From the IMG/VR virus record IMGVR_UViG_3300018933_000070, positions 1-52,215 of that record: DNA of 52,215 nt. One strand, 5' to 3'. Shown piece after piece: positions 661-6,410 of this stretch. The translations under genes were made by a program, and so were the position numbers. The stretch comes from a virus (taxonomy: Duplodnaviria > Caudoviricetes). The first letter of the stretch is position 1. The number at the start of each line of letters is the position of its first letter. Under the pieces are notes generated by a model. The model saw nothing but the letters and a program-made list of their open reading frames with translations. It had not been told where the DNA came from and did not search any database.

Positions 661-1515
661 ATGTTCATCGAACCAATGTTACTTGCGACCGCCCCCAGAC
701 CGTATTCCGATCCGAATTACATCTATGAGCCCAAGATCGACGGGCACCGGCTCCTGTTCTCACAGAAGGACGGCAAGATCCGGTTGTATACCCGGCACGA
801 GACGGACTGTACGCGGCAATATCCCGAGCTCCTGACGCCGTTTGAAGATGATATCCTTCTGGACGGTGAGGTGGCTTGTACCGACCCAGATACGGGGCTG
901 GTGGACTTTGAGCAAGTCATGACACGATTCCAGGCTAAAAAGGATCCGCGTATCAAGCAGTTGGCCGCAAAGTCACCAGTGACATACGTGGTGTTCGATA
1001 TCCTTCGATACAAAGGTCAAGACCTTCGGAAATTGCCACTCATGCGCCGCAAAGAGATCCTGGCCGGCATCAGCATGCCCAACAAACATTTTGGCGTTAT
1101 ACCTTATGTGGAAGGTGCAGGCGAGGCTTTGTTTGAACAGATGGTGTCTCGGAAACTTGAAGGGATGGTCGGCAAGAGAAAAAACAGTCTGTACGTGAGT
1201 CGGCGATCGCCAGACTGGCAAAAGGTAATCAACTGGTCCCATACTGACGTGATCATAACGGGGTATCGTAAAGATGAATTTGGATTGCTTACAGCTGTCC
1301 TTAATGAGTCTGGTCGGCATCGGCCAGCTGGAATTGTGGAGTTTGTAACGCAGGCGGCTCGCAAAGAGTTCTATTCGAAAAGTCGGGGACTTGTAGCAGC
1401 CGAGGATAAAAAATTTGTACTCTTGGATCCCAAGATACATGGGCGGGTGAAGTTTCGGAATTGGACTAAGTCAGGTATGCTCCGGACTCCGGTCTTCATG
1501 CATTTCATCGAGTAG
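661..1515 (+). CDS. ATP-dependent DNA ligase (LigD/LigC-like ligase domain plus OB domain)
   Basis: EPKIDGHR (KxDG adenylation motif), LDGEV, YVVFDIL, EGMVGK, C-terminal LRTPVF; AAAGGGG RBS. Confidence 0.93.
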   Translation: MFIEPMLLATAPRPYSDPNYIYEPKIDGHRLLFSQKDGKIRLYTRHETDCTRQYPELLTPFEDDILLDGEVACTDPDTGLVDFEQVMTRFQAKKDPRIKQLAAKSPVTYVVFDILRYKGQDLRKLPLMRRKEILAGISMPNKHFGVIPYVEGAGEALFEQMVSRKLEGMVGKRKNSLYVSRRSPDWQKVINWSHTDVIITGYRKDEFGLLTAVLNESGRHRPAGIVEFVTQAARKEFYSKSRGLVAAEDKKFVLLDPKIHGRVKFRNWTKSGMLRTPVFMHFIE

Positions 1516-1540
1516 CTTTTAATCACCTAATCTATCCATA

Positions 1541-1577
1541 AAAAAGACCCTAAGCCAAAGTGCTTGAGGGTCTTTTT
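1541..1577. terminator. Bidirectional intrinsic terminator between ligase and the convergent moron operon
   Basis: AAAAAGACCCT...AGGGTCTTTTT inverted repeat. Confidence 0.85.
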
Positions 1578-1593
1578 ATCGATGCGATGAGTA

Positions 1594-1830
1594 TTAATTC
1601 AGCTTATTATGAATCAAGTTTCGTTCCTCAATAATATACTCTGCCCAATATTCTGGGGGGTAGTGTCCAATAAATTCAGGGTCATCTTTTAGAATTTCCA
1701 GAAAAGTGGACTCCTCTATAAGCGTCAAGGCGTCCTTTCTTTCAATATCATAGGACGAGGAGATGGATTCGAGCACCATTTGCTTTAATCTTAACTCTAC
1801 ATATTCATCACTATAATGCATGCTCATCAT
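1594..1830 (-). CDS. Small acidic helical protein, DUF3791-like putative antitoxin (78 aa)
   Basis: ATGA overlap with the stop of the upstream gene; AAGGAAGTGA RBS; pattern 'ALTLIEESTF..L.DDP....HYPPEYW' resembles DUF3990 partner proteins. Confidence 0.6.
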   Translation of the reverse strand: MMSMHYSDEYVELRLKQMVLESISSSYDIERKDALTLIEESTFLEILKDDPEFIGHYPPEYWAEYIIEERNLIHNKLN

Positions 1831-2417
1831 CTCACTTCCTTTACGTCCTTTAGTATCAACCATTCAGCTGCTGTCTGTGTATGGACAGATAACTGGTCTT
1901 GGTAGTTATTCCCTTTGTACATCGGTTTCATACCTTGTATTACTTCTTCACGACTAATGATACCTTTTTTAAAGTCACCTAACAATACCCCAATATTAGG
2001 TTTACCATCTGCTAAGGGACCATAGACCAAGGGGATGTTTTGATCTATATTATGCAATTCCCCGAAATCTGTGAGTAGTCTGTTGCTTAAAACAAAATTA
2101 CCCCATTCTTCATCAGGCTTATCAAATATTTTGCAATTGCTCTTGATTTGCTCTTCAGTGATTGTAAGTTCATACTCACATACTATGGGGTGAACAAGGT
2201 CGTTAGAACCTGCCTTAATTCGCAATCGGTTGTACAGATTGGTTTTCCTAACCGCCTGTCGCTCCGCTTGGTAACTTTGACTCGTTAAGTAAAACCCTTT
2301 CCCAAAATCAGGTCGCGGATTCGCGCCACTAACATTAACGTCGATCCCCTGCCTCAGAGACATTAAATTGTTACTGGTTGTGCCGTGAAAGAGTCGTTTT
2401 GGAAGTTGATTTTTCAA
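1827..2417 (-). CDS. DUF3990-family ADP-ribosyltransferase-like protein (putative toxin)
   Basis: LFHGT, DFGKGFYLT, EEWGNFVLSNR, VYGPLADG and QLSVHT motifs typical of DUF3990; TTG start overlaps upstream TGA. Confidence 0.8.
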   Translation of the reverse strand: MKNQLPKRLFHGTTSNNLMSLRQGIDVNVSGANPRPDFGKGFYLTSQSYQAERQAVRKTNLYNRLRIKAGSNDLVHPIVCEYELTITEEQIKSNCKIFDKPDEEWGNFVLSNRLLTDFGELHNIDQNIPLVYGPLADGKPNIGVLLGDFKKGIISREEVIQGMKPMYKGNNYQDQLSVHTQTAAEWLILKDVKEVR

Positions 2418-2893
2418 TTTTCTACAGTCTCCTTGTGAAACACTTGACTGAAAAACTCTTCATATACGTCAATTGGATCTTTTTCTCCAAAGCCAACACT
2501 GTACACTGGCTTAATTTGTTGTTCAGCCATATTAAGAACTAGACCTATTGTTTTCCAGACTTGAGACTTTGTTGTTTCAAACAAACCTGCCGAGCTAAAA
2601 GCGACTTTCCCTGATTTTAAATCTATTATAAATTTCCCCATCTTCAAGCGGGCATTTATAAGATGAAGATAAATCGAAACTTCAGAAAGCCTTTCCATTG
2701 GAACATTAGTTGGAAATGCCGATTCAATAATAAAATACTCTTCATCAATATTAATTATTAAGTCTGTTGAATAGTCACCATTACCATCATCTGTACTGAA
2801 TGGCACTATAAACTTGTTATCCTGCTCCTCAAAGACTAATTCAAGCTCATTAAGAATTTTTTTAAATTCGCTATAGTTTTTATTAACATCCAT
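2414..2893 (-). CDS. YbjN / type III secretion chaperone-like protein
   Basis: 159 aa, acidic; 'PTNVPMERLSEVSIYLHLINARLKMGKFIIDLKSGKVAF' matches the YbjN pattern. Confidence 0.7.
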   Translation of the reverse strand: MDVNKNYSEFKKILNELELVFEEQDNKFIVPFSTDDGNGDYSTDLIINIDEEYFIIESAFPTNVPMERLSEVSIYLHLINARLKMGKFIIDLKSGKVAFSSAGLFETTKSQVWKTIGLVLNMAEQQIKPVYSVGFGEKDPIDVYEEFFSQVFHKETVEN

Positions 2894-2939
2894 GTTTTAA
2901 CCCCTACCTTAATTTTATGTACGTTCTTAAATAAATCAT

Positions 2940-2966
2940 CTTCGACACATCTAAGACGTTTTCCTT
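2940..2966 (-). promoter_or_regulatory. Putative SigH-type promoter for the three-gene moron
   Basis: Minus strand AAGGAAAA-N12-GTCGAAG resembles the SigH consensus AGGA...GAAT; TGTCGAA also matches a Spo0A box. Confidence 0.5.
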
Positions 2967-3000
2967 TTTACTTCTGTGTTATTTTCAACATACTAAAACA

Positions 3001-3038
3001 AAAAAAGCCTACCGGCACATAAGTCGGTAGGCTTTTTT
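3001..3038. terminator. Bidirectional terminator after the endolysin
   Basis: AAAAAAGCCTACCGGC-loop-GTCGGTAGGCTTTTTT. Confidence 0.88.
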
Positions 3039-3803
3039 CTAATTCTGCCCTGCTTCAATTTCCTGCAACTTCTTCTCTAGTTCCTCGATCCGGGCGGTAT
3101 TACCTCCGATCAATTTAAGGAAATTCTTCCGGAGCCGGTTGAACACAACAGCAACCTCTTCTCGAGTGATCGGCGCACCCGGCCGACTGCCGTCCACATA
3201 ACCGTTCTTTTTCATTTCTTCCCAAGCTGAAGCTGCCCAGGGGCTTACCACGTTGATATCACGCTCTTTAGTCACCTTCACGCCCTCCTCCTGTAATGTT
3301 TTTATTCTCTTGAGAGCAGCATTCACCTTTGATTGTGCCGGTTTAACGCCATTGCGAAGTTGGGCGCACGTCAGACCAAACACCATTTCAAAGTGCGGAT
3401 AATCTTTAAACGTCTTCCAATCGCCGCCCCAGTCAAAACCTATCTTCTTTGCTTCCTCCACAACTTCAAGCCAATCGAAGGTTTTGTCAAAGTCACCATC
3501 GCGTCGCATGTCCCAGCTAACACTTTTACCGTCCGGCGTTAGCAACGCAAAATCGATCGCCAATCCAAAGTTATGGAAACTGTGCCCGCCCTTTGCATTC
3601 GTCACAATAGCTCCTGGCTTAGTTCTGCCCTGCTCGTATAAGGCATTCTGCTCCGTGATTGTCCGTAACCCTTGGGTTATCACTATCGGCACCCCTCGGG
3701 CGTGACAGCGCTCAATTAGCAGTTCGGCAGCCTGTTTCACTACTGGATGCAAACCGTTAAGACGTGCTGCCGATTTGCTCTTTACTTGCTCCAGCGACAA
3801 CAT
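3039..3803 (-). CDS. Endolysin: M15 L-Ala-D-Glu peptidase (CwlK/Ply500-like) with an SLH-like C-terminal region
   Basis: QGLRT..EQ, SFHNFGLAIDF, WGGDW..FKDYPHFE; C-terminal WA...GYVDGSRPGAPITREE; AGGAGG RBS before MLSLEQ. Confidence 0.92.
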   Translation of the reverse strand: MLSLEQVKSKSAARLNGLHPVVKQAAELLIERCHARGVPIVITQGLRTITEQNALYEQGRTKPGAIVTNAKGGHSFHNFGLAIDFALLTPDGKSVSWDMRRDGDFDKTFDWLEVVEEAKKIGFDWGGDWKTFKDYPHFEMVFGLTCAQLRNGVKPAQSKVNAALKRIKTLQEEGVKVTKERDINVVSPWAASAWEEMKKNGYVDGSRPGAPITREEVAVVFNRLRKNFLKLIGGNTARIEELEKKLQEIEAGQN

Positions 3804-3805
3804 TC

Positions 3806-4078
3806 TTACTCCTCCTTCTGAACGCCAATCTTGGCCTGCTTCACAGCCTGGTGACCAAATACAGCAAAAGCCCCTGCAAGAATGCCCTGAATCAGTGCTT
3901 CGACTGACCACCCGATCAGGCCGATTGTCAGCCAAACAGCGATAATCAGAACAAGGTATACAATGCTCCAATCCGGCACCTTCGGCGTTTTCTTCAAGAT
4001 GAACCCGATAACCCAACATGCGGCCACTACGATAAGTAGCCGCGGATCGATCAATTCAAAAATCATGTTCCATTCCAT
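3806..4078 (-). CDS. Phage holin
   Basis: 90 aa, 2-3 transmembrane segments, KKTPKVPDWSI motif, directly upstream of the endolysin. Confidence 0.88.
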   Translation of the reverse strand: MEWNMIFELIDPRLLIVVAACWVIGFILKKTPKVPDWSIVYLVLIIAVWLTIGLIGWSVEALIQGILAGAFAVFGHQAVKQAKIGVQKEE

Positions 4079-4464: not shown

Positions 4465-4605
4465 CTATGCTACGTATTCAATGCCTGTGATCTGCTGGTA
4501 TTCCTCCGCTGTGATCATCTTGGCAACGACAAAGGTCTTCAGACTGTCATCATTGTACAAAGGATGCTGGTTATCGTAATAACGCTTGATGATCGGATAC
4601 CACAT
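4465..4605 (-). CDS. XkdX-family small tail protein (46 aa, not in ORF track)
   Basis: Hand translation MWYPIIKRYYD...ITAEEYQQITGIEYVA; ITxEEYxxITG is the XkdX signature. Confidence 0.85.
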   Translation of the reverse strand: MWYPIIKRYYDNQHPLYNDDSLKTFVVAKMITAEEYQQITGIEYVA

Positions 4606-4908
4606 TTACACTGCACCTCCTTTCAGTGCAGCGACTTCAAGCAACAGACTGCCTACGGTATCTTCAAGGGAGGCTATCGTTGCCTTATCATTGGCGCTCT
4701 CCAAAATGAGGTTCCCAACAGTCTGATTCAACTCAGTGACTTGTTGGGACAGCGTAGGTTCCGGGTCTGGGAGCTCAGGATACTCGTCAGCAAAAACAAG
4801 GAAATTCCCCTCAGTTATATTTTGCTCCTCGATTAAGAACAGGTCAGAATGCTCCTGAATAAGTGTTTCGCGCTCTGCCAAAGTGGTATATTGTTTTTTT
4901 ACTCGCAT
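4606..4908 (-). CDS. Tail fibre-associated/assembly protein (XkdW-position)
   Basis: Between tail fibre and XkdX; C-terminal coiled coil. Confidence 0.55.
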   Translation of the reverse strand: MRVKKQYTTLAERETLIQEHSDLFLIEEQNITEGNFLVFADEYPELPDPEPTLSQQVTELNQTVGNLILESANDKATIASLEDTVGSLLLEVAALKGGAV

Positions 4909-4925
4909 TCAAATTCCCCCTCCTT

Positions 4926-6410
4926 CTAACTTCGCGAACTCCAAACTTCAATATTTGTAGAAACTTTAAAATCTCGTAAATGCACATAACCTCCGCTCTT
5001 ATTTGTCCACACATACACCTGAATTTTATCATTTCCATTAATGGTAATATCCTCTATATACCCAATGTAGGATGAGGTGACTGATCGCAGGGTGCCCCTA
5101 GGCGTACCATTAACATATATCTGTCCGTACCCAATAAACCCATCTTGTACACCTAAATAGAATTGGACGCGATACGTACCAGCCATAGATATAACACACC
5201 CGAACCCTATTCCAGGGGAGGTTCCGAATGTGCTAAGGGGACCTATTTCTTCGAAGAATTTCATCTTATCCCCTGGACCAATTGTTTTAAGATTACCTAT
5301 AACCGGCCCGAATGACACGCCGTCCCTAAGGTTCTCTGGTTTAATCCCAGTTGCCGGGGCTGTTACCCAGGAACTACCGTCATAATAACCCCGAGGTGGG
5401 GAGATAAACACGCGGTCCCCAGCCCATACAGTCATATCCTGACCCGGCATATGGTGGTTTTCGGCGCTTCGGTTTGGCATACTGCCGTTAAATGGACCGC
5501 TTGCATTTGAGGCGCTCTTCCCGGCCAATAGATCGGCTGCCGTTGCATTGCCTGTTGCTCGGATGATTGCCGAGATCTTTGGAATGAGCTGCGCCCAGGA
5601 TTCACTTGTGGATGCCGGTACACCTATGGAGTTGAGCGCGGCAACCACATTCGCTTTCTGCTCAACTCCAAGCTGCTTTGCCGCAGTCGCCTCCGAATAT
5701 GCGGAGTCCGCCCGTGACTGTGCGGTAGCAGCTGCTGTCACTCCCGCGCTCCCCCGGTCATATGCAGCCTTTACTGCTTTTGGTGTCGCGGCCATCGCCT
5801 CGGACGTACTGTCGGTAGCGCTGGATAGCTGTGTGATGCCCTTTTGCGTTAGGGATGCGTCTGGGACGTCGATATTCTCAATTCTCGCCAATATTTCTTC
5901 AAGGCTGATATTTACCCGTTGATCCGTTGACGTGATAACTCCACTGGTATCCGTCGCTACATAAAAAAGCAACACCCCTGCTTTGGCTGTTGCCTGAGAT
6001 GTTGTCTTTTTGACGATCCCATCGGTATCTACATACAAATACTGCCCTTGAGTTGGATTAAGCGTCATATTGCCGGCAGGTACTTCAAGCCGACGGCCAC
6101 CGACATAAGCCACCCCAGCGGTCCAGGATGCTGTGAGGCCTTGTGTGCTGCACTGCAATCCCATAACCCCATCGATCACGGCAACAAAATTACCAGCAAG
6201 CTCTTTGGTAAGCTGCTCAATCAGGATATGAGCTCCTTCGATTCCACCCTCCATGTTATTAAGCCTGGCGGATGTGATCCGGGTACCTGCCTGAACCAAT
6301 TCGAATAGAGGCCGCCCCGTCTGCGGATCCGTTTTTTGCTTACCAGATCCATCTAAGATAGGGCGAGACATGTCCGGTATTTCATCTAACCACTGTTGCT
6401 TATTATACAA
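4926..6410 (-). CDS. Tail fibre protein
   Basis: Phage fibre repeat DASLTQKGITQLSSATDSTSEAMAATPKAVKAAYD; follows baseplate genes. Confidence 0.88.
   Translation of the reverse strand: MYNKQQWLDEIPDMSRPILDGSGKQKTDPQTGRPLFELVQAGTRITSARLNNMEGGIEGAHILIEQLTKELAGNFVAVIDGVMGLQCSTQGLTASWTAGVAYVGGRRLEVPAGNMTLNPTQGQYLYVDTDGIVKKTTSQATAKAGVLLFYVATDTSGVITSTDQRVNISLEEILARIENIDVPDASLTQKGITQLSSATDSTSEAMAATPKAVKAAYDRGSAGVTAAATAQSRADSAYSEATAAKQLGVEQKANVVAALNSIGVPASTSESWAQLIPKISAIIRATGNATAADLLAGKSASNASGPFNGSMPNRSAENHHMPGQDMTVWAGDRVFISPPRGYYDGSSWVTAPATGIKPENLRDGVSFGPVIGNLKTIGPGDKMKFFEEIGPLSTFGTSPGIGFGCVISMAGTYRVQFYLGVQDGFIGYGQIYVNGTPRGTLRSVTSSYIGYIEDITINGNDKIQVYVWTNKSGGYVHLRDFKVSTNIEVWSSRS

Follow-up and report, generated by a model that had tools for sequence, protein, structure and literature searches.

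The locus examined here raises the question of whether three short genes behind the lysis genes of a prophage, encoding a predicted ADP-ribosyltransferase (ART), a small acidic protein, and a chaperone-like protein, form a toxin-antitoxin-chaperone (TAC) system built on a fold other than that of SecB. The window, by which we mean the whole stretch of 52,215 nucleotides that was analyzed, comes from an IMG/VR provirus record. Between positions 2893 and 1594 it carries three minus-strand open reading frames, of which the middle one begins with TTG. Read in the direction of the genes, the cassette and its borders are as follows.

3002 to 3038, minus strand: upstream hairpin and U-run terminator, from folding energy against shuffles
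2894 to 3001, minus strand: AT-rich leader, GC 0.29 in the sliding window 2701 to 3000
2414 to 2893, minus strand: gene 1, 159 aa, predicted YbjN/type III secretion class I chaperone fold
1827 to 2417, minus strand: gene 2, 196 aa, DUF3990, predicted ADP-ribosyltransferase, putative toxin
1594 to 1830, minus strand: gene 3 (X′), 78 aa, acidic helical protein, putative antitoxin or neutralizing partner
1541 to 1577, minus strand: downstream terminator hairpin, from folding energy against shuffles

A first-pass annotation of the DNA had described three AT-rich genes joined by short overlaps, and the ORF coordinates, the sequence, and the base composition bear this out. Genes 1 and 2 share a 4-base TTGA (2414 to 2417), genes 2 and 3 share an ATGA (1827 to 1830), and Shine-Dalgarno-like purine runs, seen by eye in the sequence, precede all three starts, including the ATG at 2893. 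Homologs of the small protein begin at a methionine equivalent to that at 1830, which supports this start for gene 3 and rules out a longer, 89-aa version from 1863. GC content is 0.372 for the cassette (1594 to 2893) versus 0.482 for positions 3039 to 52215; in sliding windows it is 0.29 to 0.44 over 1501 to 3000 and about 0.48 to 0.55 on either side.

The cassette lies in a moron slot, as had been proposed, directly following the holin gene (3806 to 4078; PHROG holin family, 4e-22) and the endolysin gene (3039 to 3806; PHROG endolysin families, 1e-45) of the prophage, with matches to PHROG tail-fiber families at 4926 to 6410. It occupies the end of the prophage, apart from the early and structural genes. 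The terminator postulated on each side was found as a hairpin with a U run. The hairpin at 3002 to 3038 folds at −22.1 kcal/mol on the minus strand (z −6.6) and also on the plus strand (−24.9 kcal/mol, z −9.7), while that at 1541 to 1577 folds at −21.1 kcal/mol on the minus strand (z −5.5) and −18.8 kcal/mol on the plus strand (z −5.2); on the minus strand, 0 of 200 shuffles were as stable in either case. The former ends the endolysin transcript and shields the upstream side of the cassette. The latter closes the cassette and is shared convergently with the plus-strand gene for an ATP-dependent DNA ligase (661 to 1515). A simple pattern scan listed no terminators, which we attribute to hairpin loops longer than the scan's 8-base limit, and Rfam gave only sub-threshold hairpin artifacts in the window, including at 3002 to 3038. 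No tRNA genes were found in the window. The cassette had also been credited with its own promoter, a claim that we could not uphold: a sigma-70 scan of 1400 to 3200 returned 5 sites against 5.0 expected from shuffles, and the leader (2894 to 3001), where a cassette promoter would have to be, contains no sigma-70 site with at least 9 of 12 matches.

The product of gene 2 (P0002) matches Pfam DUF3990 (PF13151) over residues 27 to 186 at 73.2 bits (E = 2.3e-20; gathering score 32.2), in agreement with its original assignment, and Pfam places this family in its ART clan (PMC7955679). Its AF2 model (pLDDT 93.2) matches ART structures. Each of the top eight VIA-align hits is an ART domain of the diphtheria-toxin or exotoxin-A type (Z 8.0 to 8.9, rmsd 3.6 to 4.9 over 131 to 139 residues), and 48 of the top 50 are titled as ART superfamily members, the exceptions being a phage pre-ejectosome chain and an uncharacterized NMR structure; Foldseek returned PARP1 (5e-4) and also ParT. 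The H-G-T and F-G-x-G-F-Y motifs from which the H-Y class had been deduced are present as H11-G-T13 and D37-F-G-K-G-F-Y43. Residues H11, T13, D37, F38, G41, F42, and Y43 are invariant in 22 homologs, and G12 and G39 are nearly so. In a profile alignment with the catalytic domain of diphtheria toxin (E = 0.017), H11 falls on H21 and Y43 on Y54 of the toxin, which we take to be NAD-site residues. Altogether, the model and alignments clearly point to a predicted ADP-ribosyltransferase with the ART fold, of the H-Y-[E/D/Q] (diphtheria toxin/PARP) class. According to the alignment and the AF2 model, a predicted strand at 174 to 178 carries the invariant Q175, and its place on the predicted fifth strand makes this residue a candidate for the third catalytic position. 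The protein is mildly basic, while the products of genes 1 and 3 are both acidic. We also considered a secreted polymorphic toxin, which is ruled out by the lack of an N-terminal delivery domain, the first strand of the ART lying about 8 residues from the N terminus.

The small gene had been labeled DUF3791-like, and here our results differ. None of the 10 X′ family members searched matches Pfam DUF3791 (PF12668) at E ≤1, and hhalign assigns X′ a probability of 3.5% against true DUF3791, compared with 80% (E = 1.4e-5) against the middle gene (X) of the canonical DUF3990/X/DUF3791 cassette. By profile comparison, gene 3 thus appears to be distantly related to the unnamed gene in the middle of the PADLOC PDC-M13 cassette and not to be a Pfam DUF3791 gene. 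Atlas structures resembling X′ (TM 0.66 to 0.77) carry the automatic name DUF3791, which we treat only as a lead. On its own, gene 3 has no Pfam, PADLOC, or PHROG match. The two cassette proteins other than the ART, P0003 and P0001, have no PADLOC match at E ≤1, and neither NCBIfam nor PHROGs yielded anything informative on any protein of the cassette. The product has a pI of 4.50, is helical, and ends in a conserved HYPPEYWA-type motif; its family of 7 members was extended to 15. In the clade linked to YbjN-like genes, X′ measures 73 to 78 aa, and its YbjN-less relatives measure 68 to 86 aa, with no extra tail. Since X′ shows no length extension relative to these relatives, the chaperone-addiction extension typical of TAC systems is not visible, and X′ might still contain a short internal or C-terminal chaperone-binding motif.

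For gene 1, the annotated YbjN/CesT type is corroborated by the Pfam matches of relatives, by the AF2 model, and by Foldseek. The protein itself scores 16.1 bits against Pfam YbjN (PF10722; E = 0.014), below the 22-bit gathering score, while among 49 aligned relatives 39 match YbjN (E ≤0.01, best 2.6e-16) and 6 match CesT_Tir_1. With the model (pLDDT 93.3, pTM 0.85) as query, Foldseek produced 14 matches at E ≤1e-3, led by Escherichia coli YbjN (6vu7; 4.5e-5, TM 0.57/0.63), with DR_1245, ExsC, AmyR, CesT, and SycT among the further top matches and no chain titled SecB among the rows listed. We conclude from the modeled fold that gene 1 is predicted to encode a divergent YbjN/type III-chaperone-fold protein. 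It is acidic (pI 4.55; 4.4 to 4.8 for the YbjN-like proteins of three loci) and, in an otherwise fast-diverging sequence, keeps a conserved C-terminal tail ending in ETVEN that is modeled with low confidence (last block pLDDT 66). Fold and acidity are shared with YbjN, AmyR, and DR_1245 and with the class I type III secretion chaperones (CesT, SycT, SicP, and ExsC), and the Pfam matches of its relatives fall in the same two families. Unlike these proteins, gene 1 sits in the prophage of a Gram-positive host, beside an ART gene and with no secretion-system context. It also differs from the generic YbjN genes of sampled Bacilli, found in 5 of 401 genomes, which have DUF3990 nearby at 0 of 7 places.

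The first-pass annotation had staked its reading on co-occurrence of the YbjN gene with the other two elsewhere, and such co-occurrence was found. On a compost metagenome contig (L012), a YbjN-like gene (1819 to 2274) is followed by DUF3990 (2277 to 2891) and X′ (from 2888). A second IMG/VR provirus (L024) reads YbjN-like (4525 to 4998) and DUF3990 (4995 to 5600) up to the contig end; its DUF3990 protein is 100% identical to P0011, named Paenibacillus sp. Root52 at NCBI. Three separate searches each placed a protein (P0004, P0007, and P0028) on a 28,821-base contig, from which we infer a third recurrence of the triad on one contig of that length. The first junction is a TTGA in L024 and a 2-base gap in L012, where the second junction is again an ATGA. 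Both cassettes are AT rich (GC 0.33 to 0.34 versus 0.50 to 0.57 in the flanks), bounded by hairpins, and preceded by holin and endolysin genes. The three genes are real, tightly coupled, and co-inherited. Across the window, L012, and L024, the YbjN-like proteins share 28 to 40% identity versus 52 to 57% for the ART. The flanking prophages differ: judged by eye rather than by scan, the endolysin is of the M15 type in the window and in L012 and of the amidase type in L024.

The four YbjN-linked DUF3990 proteins all fall within one clade of 10 rows (support 99/97), 4 of which have known genomic context, and a YbjN-like neighbor was found in 0 of 54 other DUF3990 locus records outside that clade. 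Among the loci read, the gene 1 subfamily is seen only beside this one DUF3990 clade. By HMM, 37 of the 56 other locus records have a small partner of the X type after DUF3990, and 54 of these 56 have no YbjN-like gene, so the third gene is not needed for the core function. Searches for close relatives elsewhere returned little. A YbjN-like protein named Paenibacillus cellulositrophicus (P0005) is 69% identical, and a word-based search gave no matching close DUF3990 for it. Single-protein scans of viral contigs for close relatives (P0001, P0002, P0034, P0035, and P0038), a genome-contig scan with YbjN alignment A1, and tblastn of P0001 against phages and plasmids found nothing, and a genome-contig scan with alignment A2 found only 4 distant loci. 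The YbjN-like profile matched 0 of 61 genomes, a sample in which one family stands for its order and which lies outside the Paenibacillus host lineage, so that rarity beyond that lineage is only weakly tested; 5 of the same 61 genomes carry a distant DUF3990, none with a YbjN neighbor.

We compared the cassette with described systems, beginning with the PADLOC defense candidates (PDC), untested systems found by their embedding in BREX, DISARM, or restriction-modification loci (bioRxiv 10.1101/2024.01.29.577857). Gene 2 matches only PDC-M13, PDC-M10, and PDC-M42 models (PDC-M13B, 3.6e-21; PDC-M13A, 2.5e-16; PDC-M10A, 2.3e-10). Four canonical DUF3990/X/DUF3791 cassettes hit all three PDC-M13 model sets, and from these HMM matches we derive the composition of PDC-M13 as DUF3990, X (the "B" models), and DUF3791 (the "C" models). 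In rumen genomes, PDC-M13 has been reported to be one of the more abundant calls (PMC13356809). The present cassette has a DUF3990 ART of the same family as PDC-M13 and PDC-M10, is likewise a three-gene unit on a mobile element with a candidate function only, and resembles PDC-M13 in the small helical gene directly downstream, distantly related to the PDC-M13 middle gene. Its PDC-M13 gene set is incomplete, however: only the DUF3990 gene matches, and no DUF3791 ORF lies between the two terminators. Whereas the canonical order is DUF3990, X, DUF3791, the extra gene here is upstream and has a predicted type III chaperone fold, neither X′ nor the YbjN-like protein matches a PADLOC model, and the DUF3990 proteins belong to separate clades. 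Accordingly, two statements of the first-pass annotation need amending. DUF3990 does have a usual partner set, but this is X, with or without DUF3791, and not DUF3791 alone. The combination was called undescribed, which holds for the YbjN-bearing variant, the new element here, and not for DUF3990 cassettes themselves, which are already listed as defense candidates PDC-M13 and PDC-M10. No experiments on any DUF3990 cassette were found in the literature searched.

CmdTAC, which the annotation had described correctly in drawing its analogy, combines an ART bearing the HY-[E,D,Q] signature, an antitoxin on which folding depends, and a chaperone sensing capsid protein (PMC11618068). Both systems have three genes in a mobile-element or defense setting, an ART of the diphtheria-toxin class with the HY-[E,D,Q] signature as toxin (putatively so here), a small partner adjoining it, and a third component from a peptide-binding chaperone family (PMC11618068). 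The cassette is nevertheless not a SecB-type TAC member in the sense of Bordes and Genevaux: its chaperone-like protein has a predicted YbjN/CesT and not a SecB fold and is encoded first instead of last, and X′ is a compact, helical protein of 78 aa in which no long disordered chaperone-addiction tail is visible. ParST, MbcTA, Xre-RES, NatRT, and DarTG likewise pair an ART-superfamily toxin with an adjacent neutralizer (roles that are putative here), and the gene 2 model aligns with ParT (Z 7.9), MbcT (7.6), NatT (6.8), RES (6.5), and DarT (5.3). These toxins belong to other families (RES and DarT), with other active-site signatures and antitoxin folds, and none has a YbjN-like third gene. For the TY-chaperones of ARG-centric systems, chaperone domains of the YbjN/T3SS type have been predicted to be linked with ADP-ribosylation conflict (Iyer et al. 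2022, PMC9503650), and the present cassette is similar in this respect. Those neighborhoods are centered on ADP-ribosylglycohydrolases proposed to reverse viral ADP-ribosylation, and DUF3990 does not occur in the text of that article (PMC9503650). Finally, DUF3990 forms the C-terminal domain of Serratia marcescens Rhs5, a predicted T6SS effector with a small ORF directly downstream as predicted immunity protein (PMC4524185). The shared Pfam domain, found there at the Rhs toxin-domain position, and the small downstream ORF recall genes 2 and 3, but Rhs5 is a large predicted T6SS-delivered protein, while gene 2 encodes a stand-alone protein of 196 aa with no delivery domain.

The explanation that we favor, with a probability of roughly 45%, is a conserved, insulated three-gene prophage moron around a DUF3990 ART, consisting of a toxin, a small neutralizing partner, and a clade-specific chaperone-like third component, and serving in defense or addiction. 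The putative ART would be a growth-arresting toxin that spends NAD+ on modifying a macromolecule of the cell or of a phage. X′, acidic and 78 aa long, would bind and neutralize it and perhaps aid its folding, in the manner of CmdA with CmdT. The YbjN-like protein, also acidic, would be a peptide-binding accessory, held at a fixed ratio to the other two by translational coupling, that keeps the lysogen's complex inactive or stable. If a second phage infected the cell, or the prophage were lost, this balance would be upset and the ART set free, resulting in abortive infection or addiction. By analogy, the cassette may then work in outline like a TAC system whose third component has a fold other than that of SecB. 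Complex prediction with the YbjN-like protein (A3) as partner scored 0.00 and 0.01 for the ART (A4) and X′ (A9) alignments against a mark of 0.32, values that count neither for nor against a complex, with the YbjN-like protein entered as a monomer; class I chaperones usually act as dimers. A more specific version, in which the YbjN-like protein is a sensor chaperone silencing X′-ART until a superinfecting phage supplies a structural or early protein that titrates the chaperone off and frees the ART, seems distinctly improbable at present. The faster divergence of the YbjN-like protein fits the tracking of phage proteins, but relaxed constraint would produce the same pattern.

The roles of the two acidic proteins could also be exchanged, with the YbjN-like protein inhibiting the ART directly as antitoxin or immunity protein and X′ acting as adaptor, folding helper, or regulator, which would make this a two-inhibitor or type II-like toxin-antitoxin system and not a chaperone-addicted one. 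The first gene overlaps the toxin start and encodes a strongly acidic protein in all three loci, an arrangement like that of antitoxin-toxin operons; its low-confidence tail is conserved against a fast-diverging background, X′ lacks a chaperone-addiction-like extension, and T3SS-chaperone homologs have been predicted to be non-cognate antitoxins (PMC13092808). However, the near-universal neighbor of DUF3990 is the X-type partner and not a YbjN-like gene, so that neutralization is more simply the role of X′, and we consider the exchange unlikely. A further possibility is that the YbjN-like gene is an unrelated passenger that, within a single lineage of Paenibacillus prophages, happens to be inherited along with a module of two genes, DUF3990 and X′. 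The restriction of the association to one small clade and the absence of DUF3990 near the generic YbjN genes of sampled Bacilli are consistent with this, but in each of the three loci read the YbjN-like gene still overlaps DUF3990 or lies 2 bases from it despite the low identity of the YbjN-like proteins, the flanking prophages differ in their endolysins, and no locus read has the subfamily without DUF3990. We regard a passenger as very unlikely.

The ART might instead be a phage effector acting on a host or rival-phage target, in takeover, lysogenic conversion, or counter-defense, with the YbjN-like protein as a folding or holding chaperone, X′ as a modulator, and no suicidal toxin involved. 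Class I chaperones classically hold effectors, and DUF3990-X′ pairs are present in phage genomes beside integrase or repressor genes (Geobacillus virus E3 gp30-gp31 and L026) and ahead of a terminase-like gene (L025, seen by eye rather than by scan). Furthermore, ARTs with which phages modify macromolecules of the host are widespread (PMC9503650). Set against this are the terminator insulation and the terminal position of the cassette, the presence of the family on many plasmids and chromosomes and inside defense loci, its use at the C terminus of an Rhs effector predicted to be antibacterial (PMC4524185), and a tightly coupled acidic partner of the kind typical of self-protection. An effector role therefore seems rather improbable, and we retain the toxin with its neutralizing partner and chaperone-like third component as the preferred reading.

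Control of the toxin by the YbjN-like protein would carry the TAC principle past SecB-like chaperones and give the enigmatic YbjN family a concrete role. Should the protein exert it as a sensor chaperone, a second, structurally unrelated chaperone class would have converged on the CmdC/SecB role in TAC immunity, and a YbjN-family protein in Gram-positive bacteria would have its first assigned molecular job. If the ART is active, knowing whether it targets protein, DNA, or RNA would establish the biochemistry of an entire Pfam family in the ART clan. DUF3990 cassettes are common in defense loci and on mobile elements, where we found them on phages, proviruses, and 75 plasmid records, and the present clade offers a compact, insulated, naturally three-part version whose parts are separable. 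The X′ family, for its part, follows DUF3990 genes very widely.

The window is an IMG/VR provirus whose minus-strand order runs from replication and packaging genes through a tail fibre and holin to an endolysin, and the three-gene cassette lies among these features:

4926-6410, minus strand: tail fibre
3806-4078, minus strand: holin
3039-3806, minus strand: endolysin
3002-3038: strong hairpin with a U run, directly after the endolysin
108 bases between the 3002-3038 hairpin and the first cassette ORF: AT-rich leader
2893-2414, minus strand: gene 1, 159 aa
2417-1827, minus strand: gene 2, 196 aa, TTG start
1830-1594, minus strand: gene 3, 78 aa
1541-1577: second hairpin, after gene 3, convergently common to the cassette and the ligase gene
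661-1515, plus strand: ATP-dependent DNA ligase (PHROG 114, 3.8e-32)

The cassette ORFs overlap at TTGA (genes 1 and 2) and ATGA (genes 2 and 3), and GC content is 0.372 in the cassette versus 0.482 in the remainder of the record. In a simple scan, promoter hits did not exceed chance and the 108-base leader had none, so the promoter of its own with which the first-pass annotation credited the operon stays an expectation rather than an observation. Rfam and tRNA scans of the window returned nothing relevant. The ligase gene, which converges on the cassette terminator, may be the final gene of the prophage or the first of the host; no boundary tRNA was found. At its longest, the endolysin ORF spans 3039-4019 and runs into the holin ORF in a different frame; in the shorter version (3039-3806), endolysin family matches start near residue 10, so the real start is probably near 3806.

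Gene 2 encodes a DUF3990 protein with a predicted ADP-ribosyltransferase (ART) fold, as had been proposed. It matched Pfam DUF3990 at 2.3e-20, and PARP and the diphtheria toxin C domain also scored weakly, below threshold; PMC7955679 lists DUF3990 as a member of Pfam's ART clan. Exhaustive structural comparison of its AlphaFold model (pLDDT 93.2) ranked diphtheria-toxin, exotoxin-A and cholix-type catalytic domains best (Z 8.0-8.9), with ParT, MbcT, PARPs, NatT, RES, DarT and Tpt1 lower, and Foldseek gave the same ART outcome. Both H11 and Y43 belong to the residues invariant across a 22-sequence alignment (the others being T13, D37, F38, G41, F42, N112, R113, D137, G138, Q175, S177 and H179), and the YHGT and GFY motifs pair with residues 21 and 54 of diphtheria toxin in a PDB-sequence profile search (E 0.017). 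Q175 is a candidate for the third catalytic residue, which would match the signature HY-[E,D,Q] that PMC11618068 gives for the ART toxin CmdT. In the predicted T6SS effector Rhs5, DUF3990 occupies the C-terminus, and the next gene, a small ORF, is its predicted immunity gene (PMC4524185).

The chaperone fold proposed for gene 1 is likewise supported by its relatives and its model, which mark it as a YbjN/type III chaperone-fold protein. Its own Pfam YbjN score fell below threshold (E 0.014). An exhaustive search by profile turned up 85 relatives, with 7 below 1e-10. In a 49-row alignment comprising 46 of these relatives plus three close sequences, with fused, short and lower-ranked sequences dropped, 39 rows matched Pfam YbjN and 6 matched CesT_Tir_1. 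The model (pLDDT 93.3) matched E. coli YbjN, DR_1245, AmyR, ExsC, CesT, SycT, SicP and other class I chaperones. The protein is acidic (pI 4.55). Past its last helix, a C-terminal tail of about 10 residues (2414-2446, ending ...ETVEN) has low model confidence yet is kept across most of an otherwise fast-diverging subfamily, and might serve as a short motif for binding or degradation.

Gene 3 had no Pfam, PADLOC or PHROG match. Six close homologues, together with profile hits immediately following more distantly related DUF3990 genes, make up a 15-member family with the motif ...F..L..DP.F..HY.P.YWA..I. In another DUF3990 clade, DUF3990 is followed by X, a protein of 80 aa, and then by a genuine DUF3791 protein, an arrangement that PADLOC model matches identify as the defence candidate PDC-M13; the third genes matched DUF3791 in 4/4 cases tested (1e-14 to 3e-24), and the middle genes in 0/4 above threshold. 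Profile-profile comparison linked the gene 3 family to X (80%, E 1.4e-5, 44 columns) and not to DUF3791 (3.5%), which Pfam matched in none of 10 family members tested. The DUF3791-like identity initially assigned to gene 3 is not supported; the gene product is instead a distant relative of the middle partner, here X′. The Atlas model of gene 3 resembles clusters auto-named DUF3791 (TM 0.66-0.77), a lead only, since this is a helical protein of about 70 residues. The PDC-M13 models (PDLC04433-04446, seen via loci L028 and L029) have mixed A, B and C labels, with DUF3990 matching A and B, X matching B and C, and DUF3791 matching C and A, so that the label of a match does not reveal which gene it is. 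A divergent DUF3990 clade (L008 840-1385; L009 1041-1421) has a longer downstream partner of 126-181 aa, uncaught by X profiles, that may be X in a fused or extended form, judging by eye from a similar "...YGYS...A...L...Y" start.

Profile scans of every locus examined showed that the triad recurs, within one DUF3990 clade. The proposed pairing of a YbjN gene with the ART gene was found at a compost metagenome contig, L012, as YbjN-subfamily, DUF3990 and X′ (proteins P0040 and P0012), and at an IMG/VR provirus, L024, as YbjN-subfamily and DUF3990, where the contig stops inside the cassette. P0011, a protein named from Paenibacillus sp. Root52, has the same sequence as the L024 DUF3990. The YbjN-DUF3990 junction is TTGA in L024, and the L012 junctions are a 2-base gap and ATGA. 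Both cassettes are AT-rich (GC 0.33-0.34 versus 0.50-0.57 in the flanks), bordered by hairpins and placed directly after holin and endolysin genes; the L024 endolysin, read from translations by eye, seems unlike the type in the window and L012. We infer a fourth triad from P0004, P0007 and P0028, for each of which the longest contig is given as 28,821 bases. A maximum-likelihood tree scatters the four YbjN-linked DUF3990 proteins through one 10-row clade (support 99/97) and places the PDC-M13-type proteins in a separate one (100/96). A word-based search returned no YbjN partners for the other six clade members; since it also missed those at L012 and L024, its silence is uninformative.

Beyond this clade the YbjN-like gene was absent from the records examined. 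Among 56 other DUF3990 locus records (L007 and L047 duplicate L004, L049 duplicates L009, L051 duplicates L003, L053 duplicates L010, L013 nearly duplicates L002, and L064 overlaps L062), only L012 and L024 had a YbjN-like neighbor, and HMMs detected an X-type small partner in 37. Across 401 genomes drawn evenly from the class of genome G001 (Bacilli), DUF3990 occurred in 19 (22 places), never beside a YbjN-like gene, and the YbjN-subfamily profile matched weakly in 5 (7 places), none adjoining DUF3990. Priestia and Planococcus plasmid loci carry only DUF3990 and an overlapping small ORF. These loci indicate a core of DUF3990 and X with a modular third gene, which is missing, a downstream DUF3791 or an upstream YbjN-like gene.

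Other DUF3990 settings were also recorded. A Kiritimatiellae MAG contig (L005 1-6905) has three DUF3990 genes in 7 kb, two with X and DUF3791, interleaved with small antitoxin-like genes and ORFs that by eye are PIN-type-toxin-like, and resembles an island made up of toxin-antitoxin-like cassettes. In Geobacillus virus E3, gp30-gp31 (L006 2980-3790), annotated as hypothetical proteins, are a two-gene DUF3990-X′ form with a site-specific integrase on one side and an Arc-like repressor on the other. In PLSDB, 75 plasmid records carry DUF3990 genes, most of them from Bacteroides (40) or Clostridium (15); some are small and non-mobilizable, as might be expected if the family served in addiction or defence.

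Because its chaperone fold differs, the cassette is not a member of the SecB-type toxin-antitoxin-chaperone (TAC) systems. It draws on the toxin family of PDC-M13 and on a relative of that system's middle gene, but falls outside PDC-M13 as defined by the PADLOC models, having no DUF3791 gene and no model match for X′. The earlier claim of novelty stands for the YbjN-DUF3990 combination, of which we found no description in the open-access article texts searched, but not for DUF3990 cassettes, already known defence candidates through PDC-M13. The cassette is real and conserved, though rare, and can be tested; its proposed function is one that we infer.

By analogy, the cassette fits a toxin, a neutralising partner and a chaperone-like accessory: gene 2 would be a toxin neutralised by a partner protein, the YbjN-like protein would be a clade-specific accessory, and the prophage would retain the whole as a moron. 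The toxin/partner reading draws on conserved coupling, insulation at the prophage end and spread across mobile elements and defence loci (bioRxiv 10.1101/2024.01.29.577857), and the charges, mildly basic for the ART and acidic for both partners, were counted toward it. CmdTAC offers a precedent for an ART of this class acting in this way; there, the antitoxin also aids toxin folding and a phage capsid protein displaces the chaperone (PMC11618068). Homologues of T3SS chaperones have been put forward as antitoxins (PMC13092808), and PMC9503650 predicts a link between YbjN-type chaperones and other ADP-ribose conflict systems. X′ has no chaperone-addiction-like extension, which makes it less likely that the TAC mechanism is copied literally. 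Identity is 28-40% for the YbjN-like proteins versus 52-57% for the ART, a faster divergence that is compatible with either a sensor role or weak constraint.
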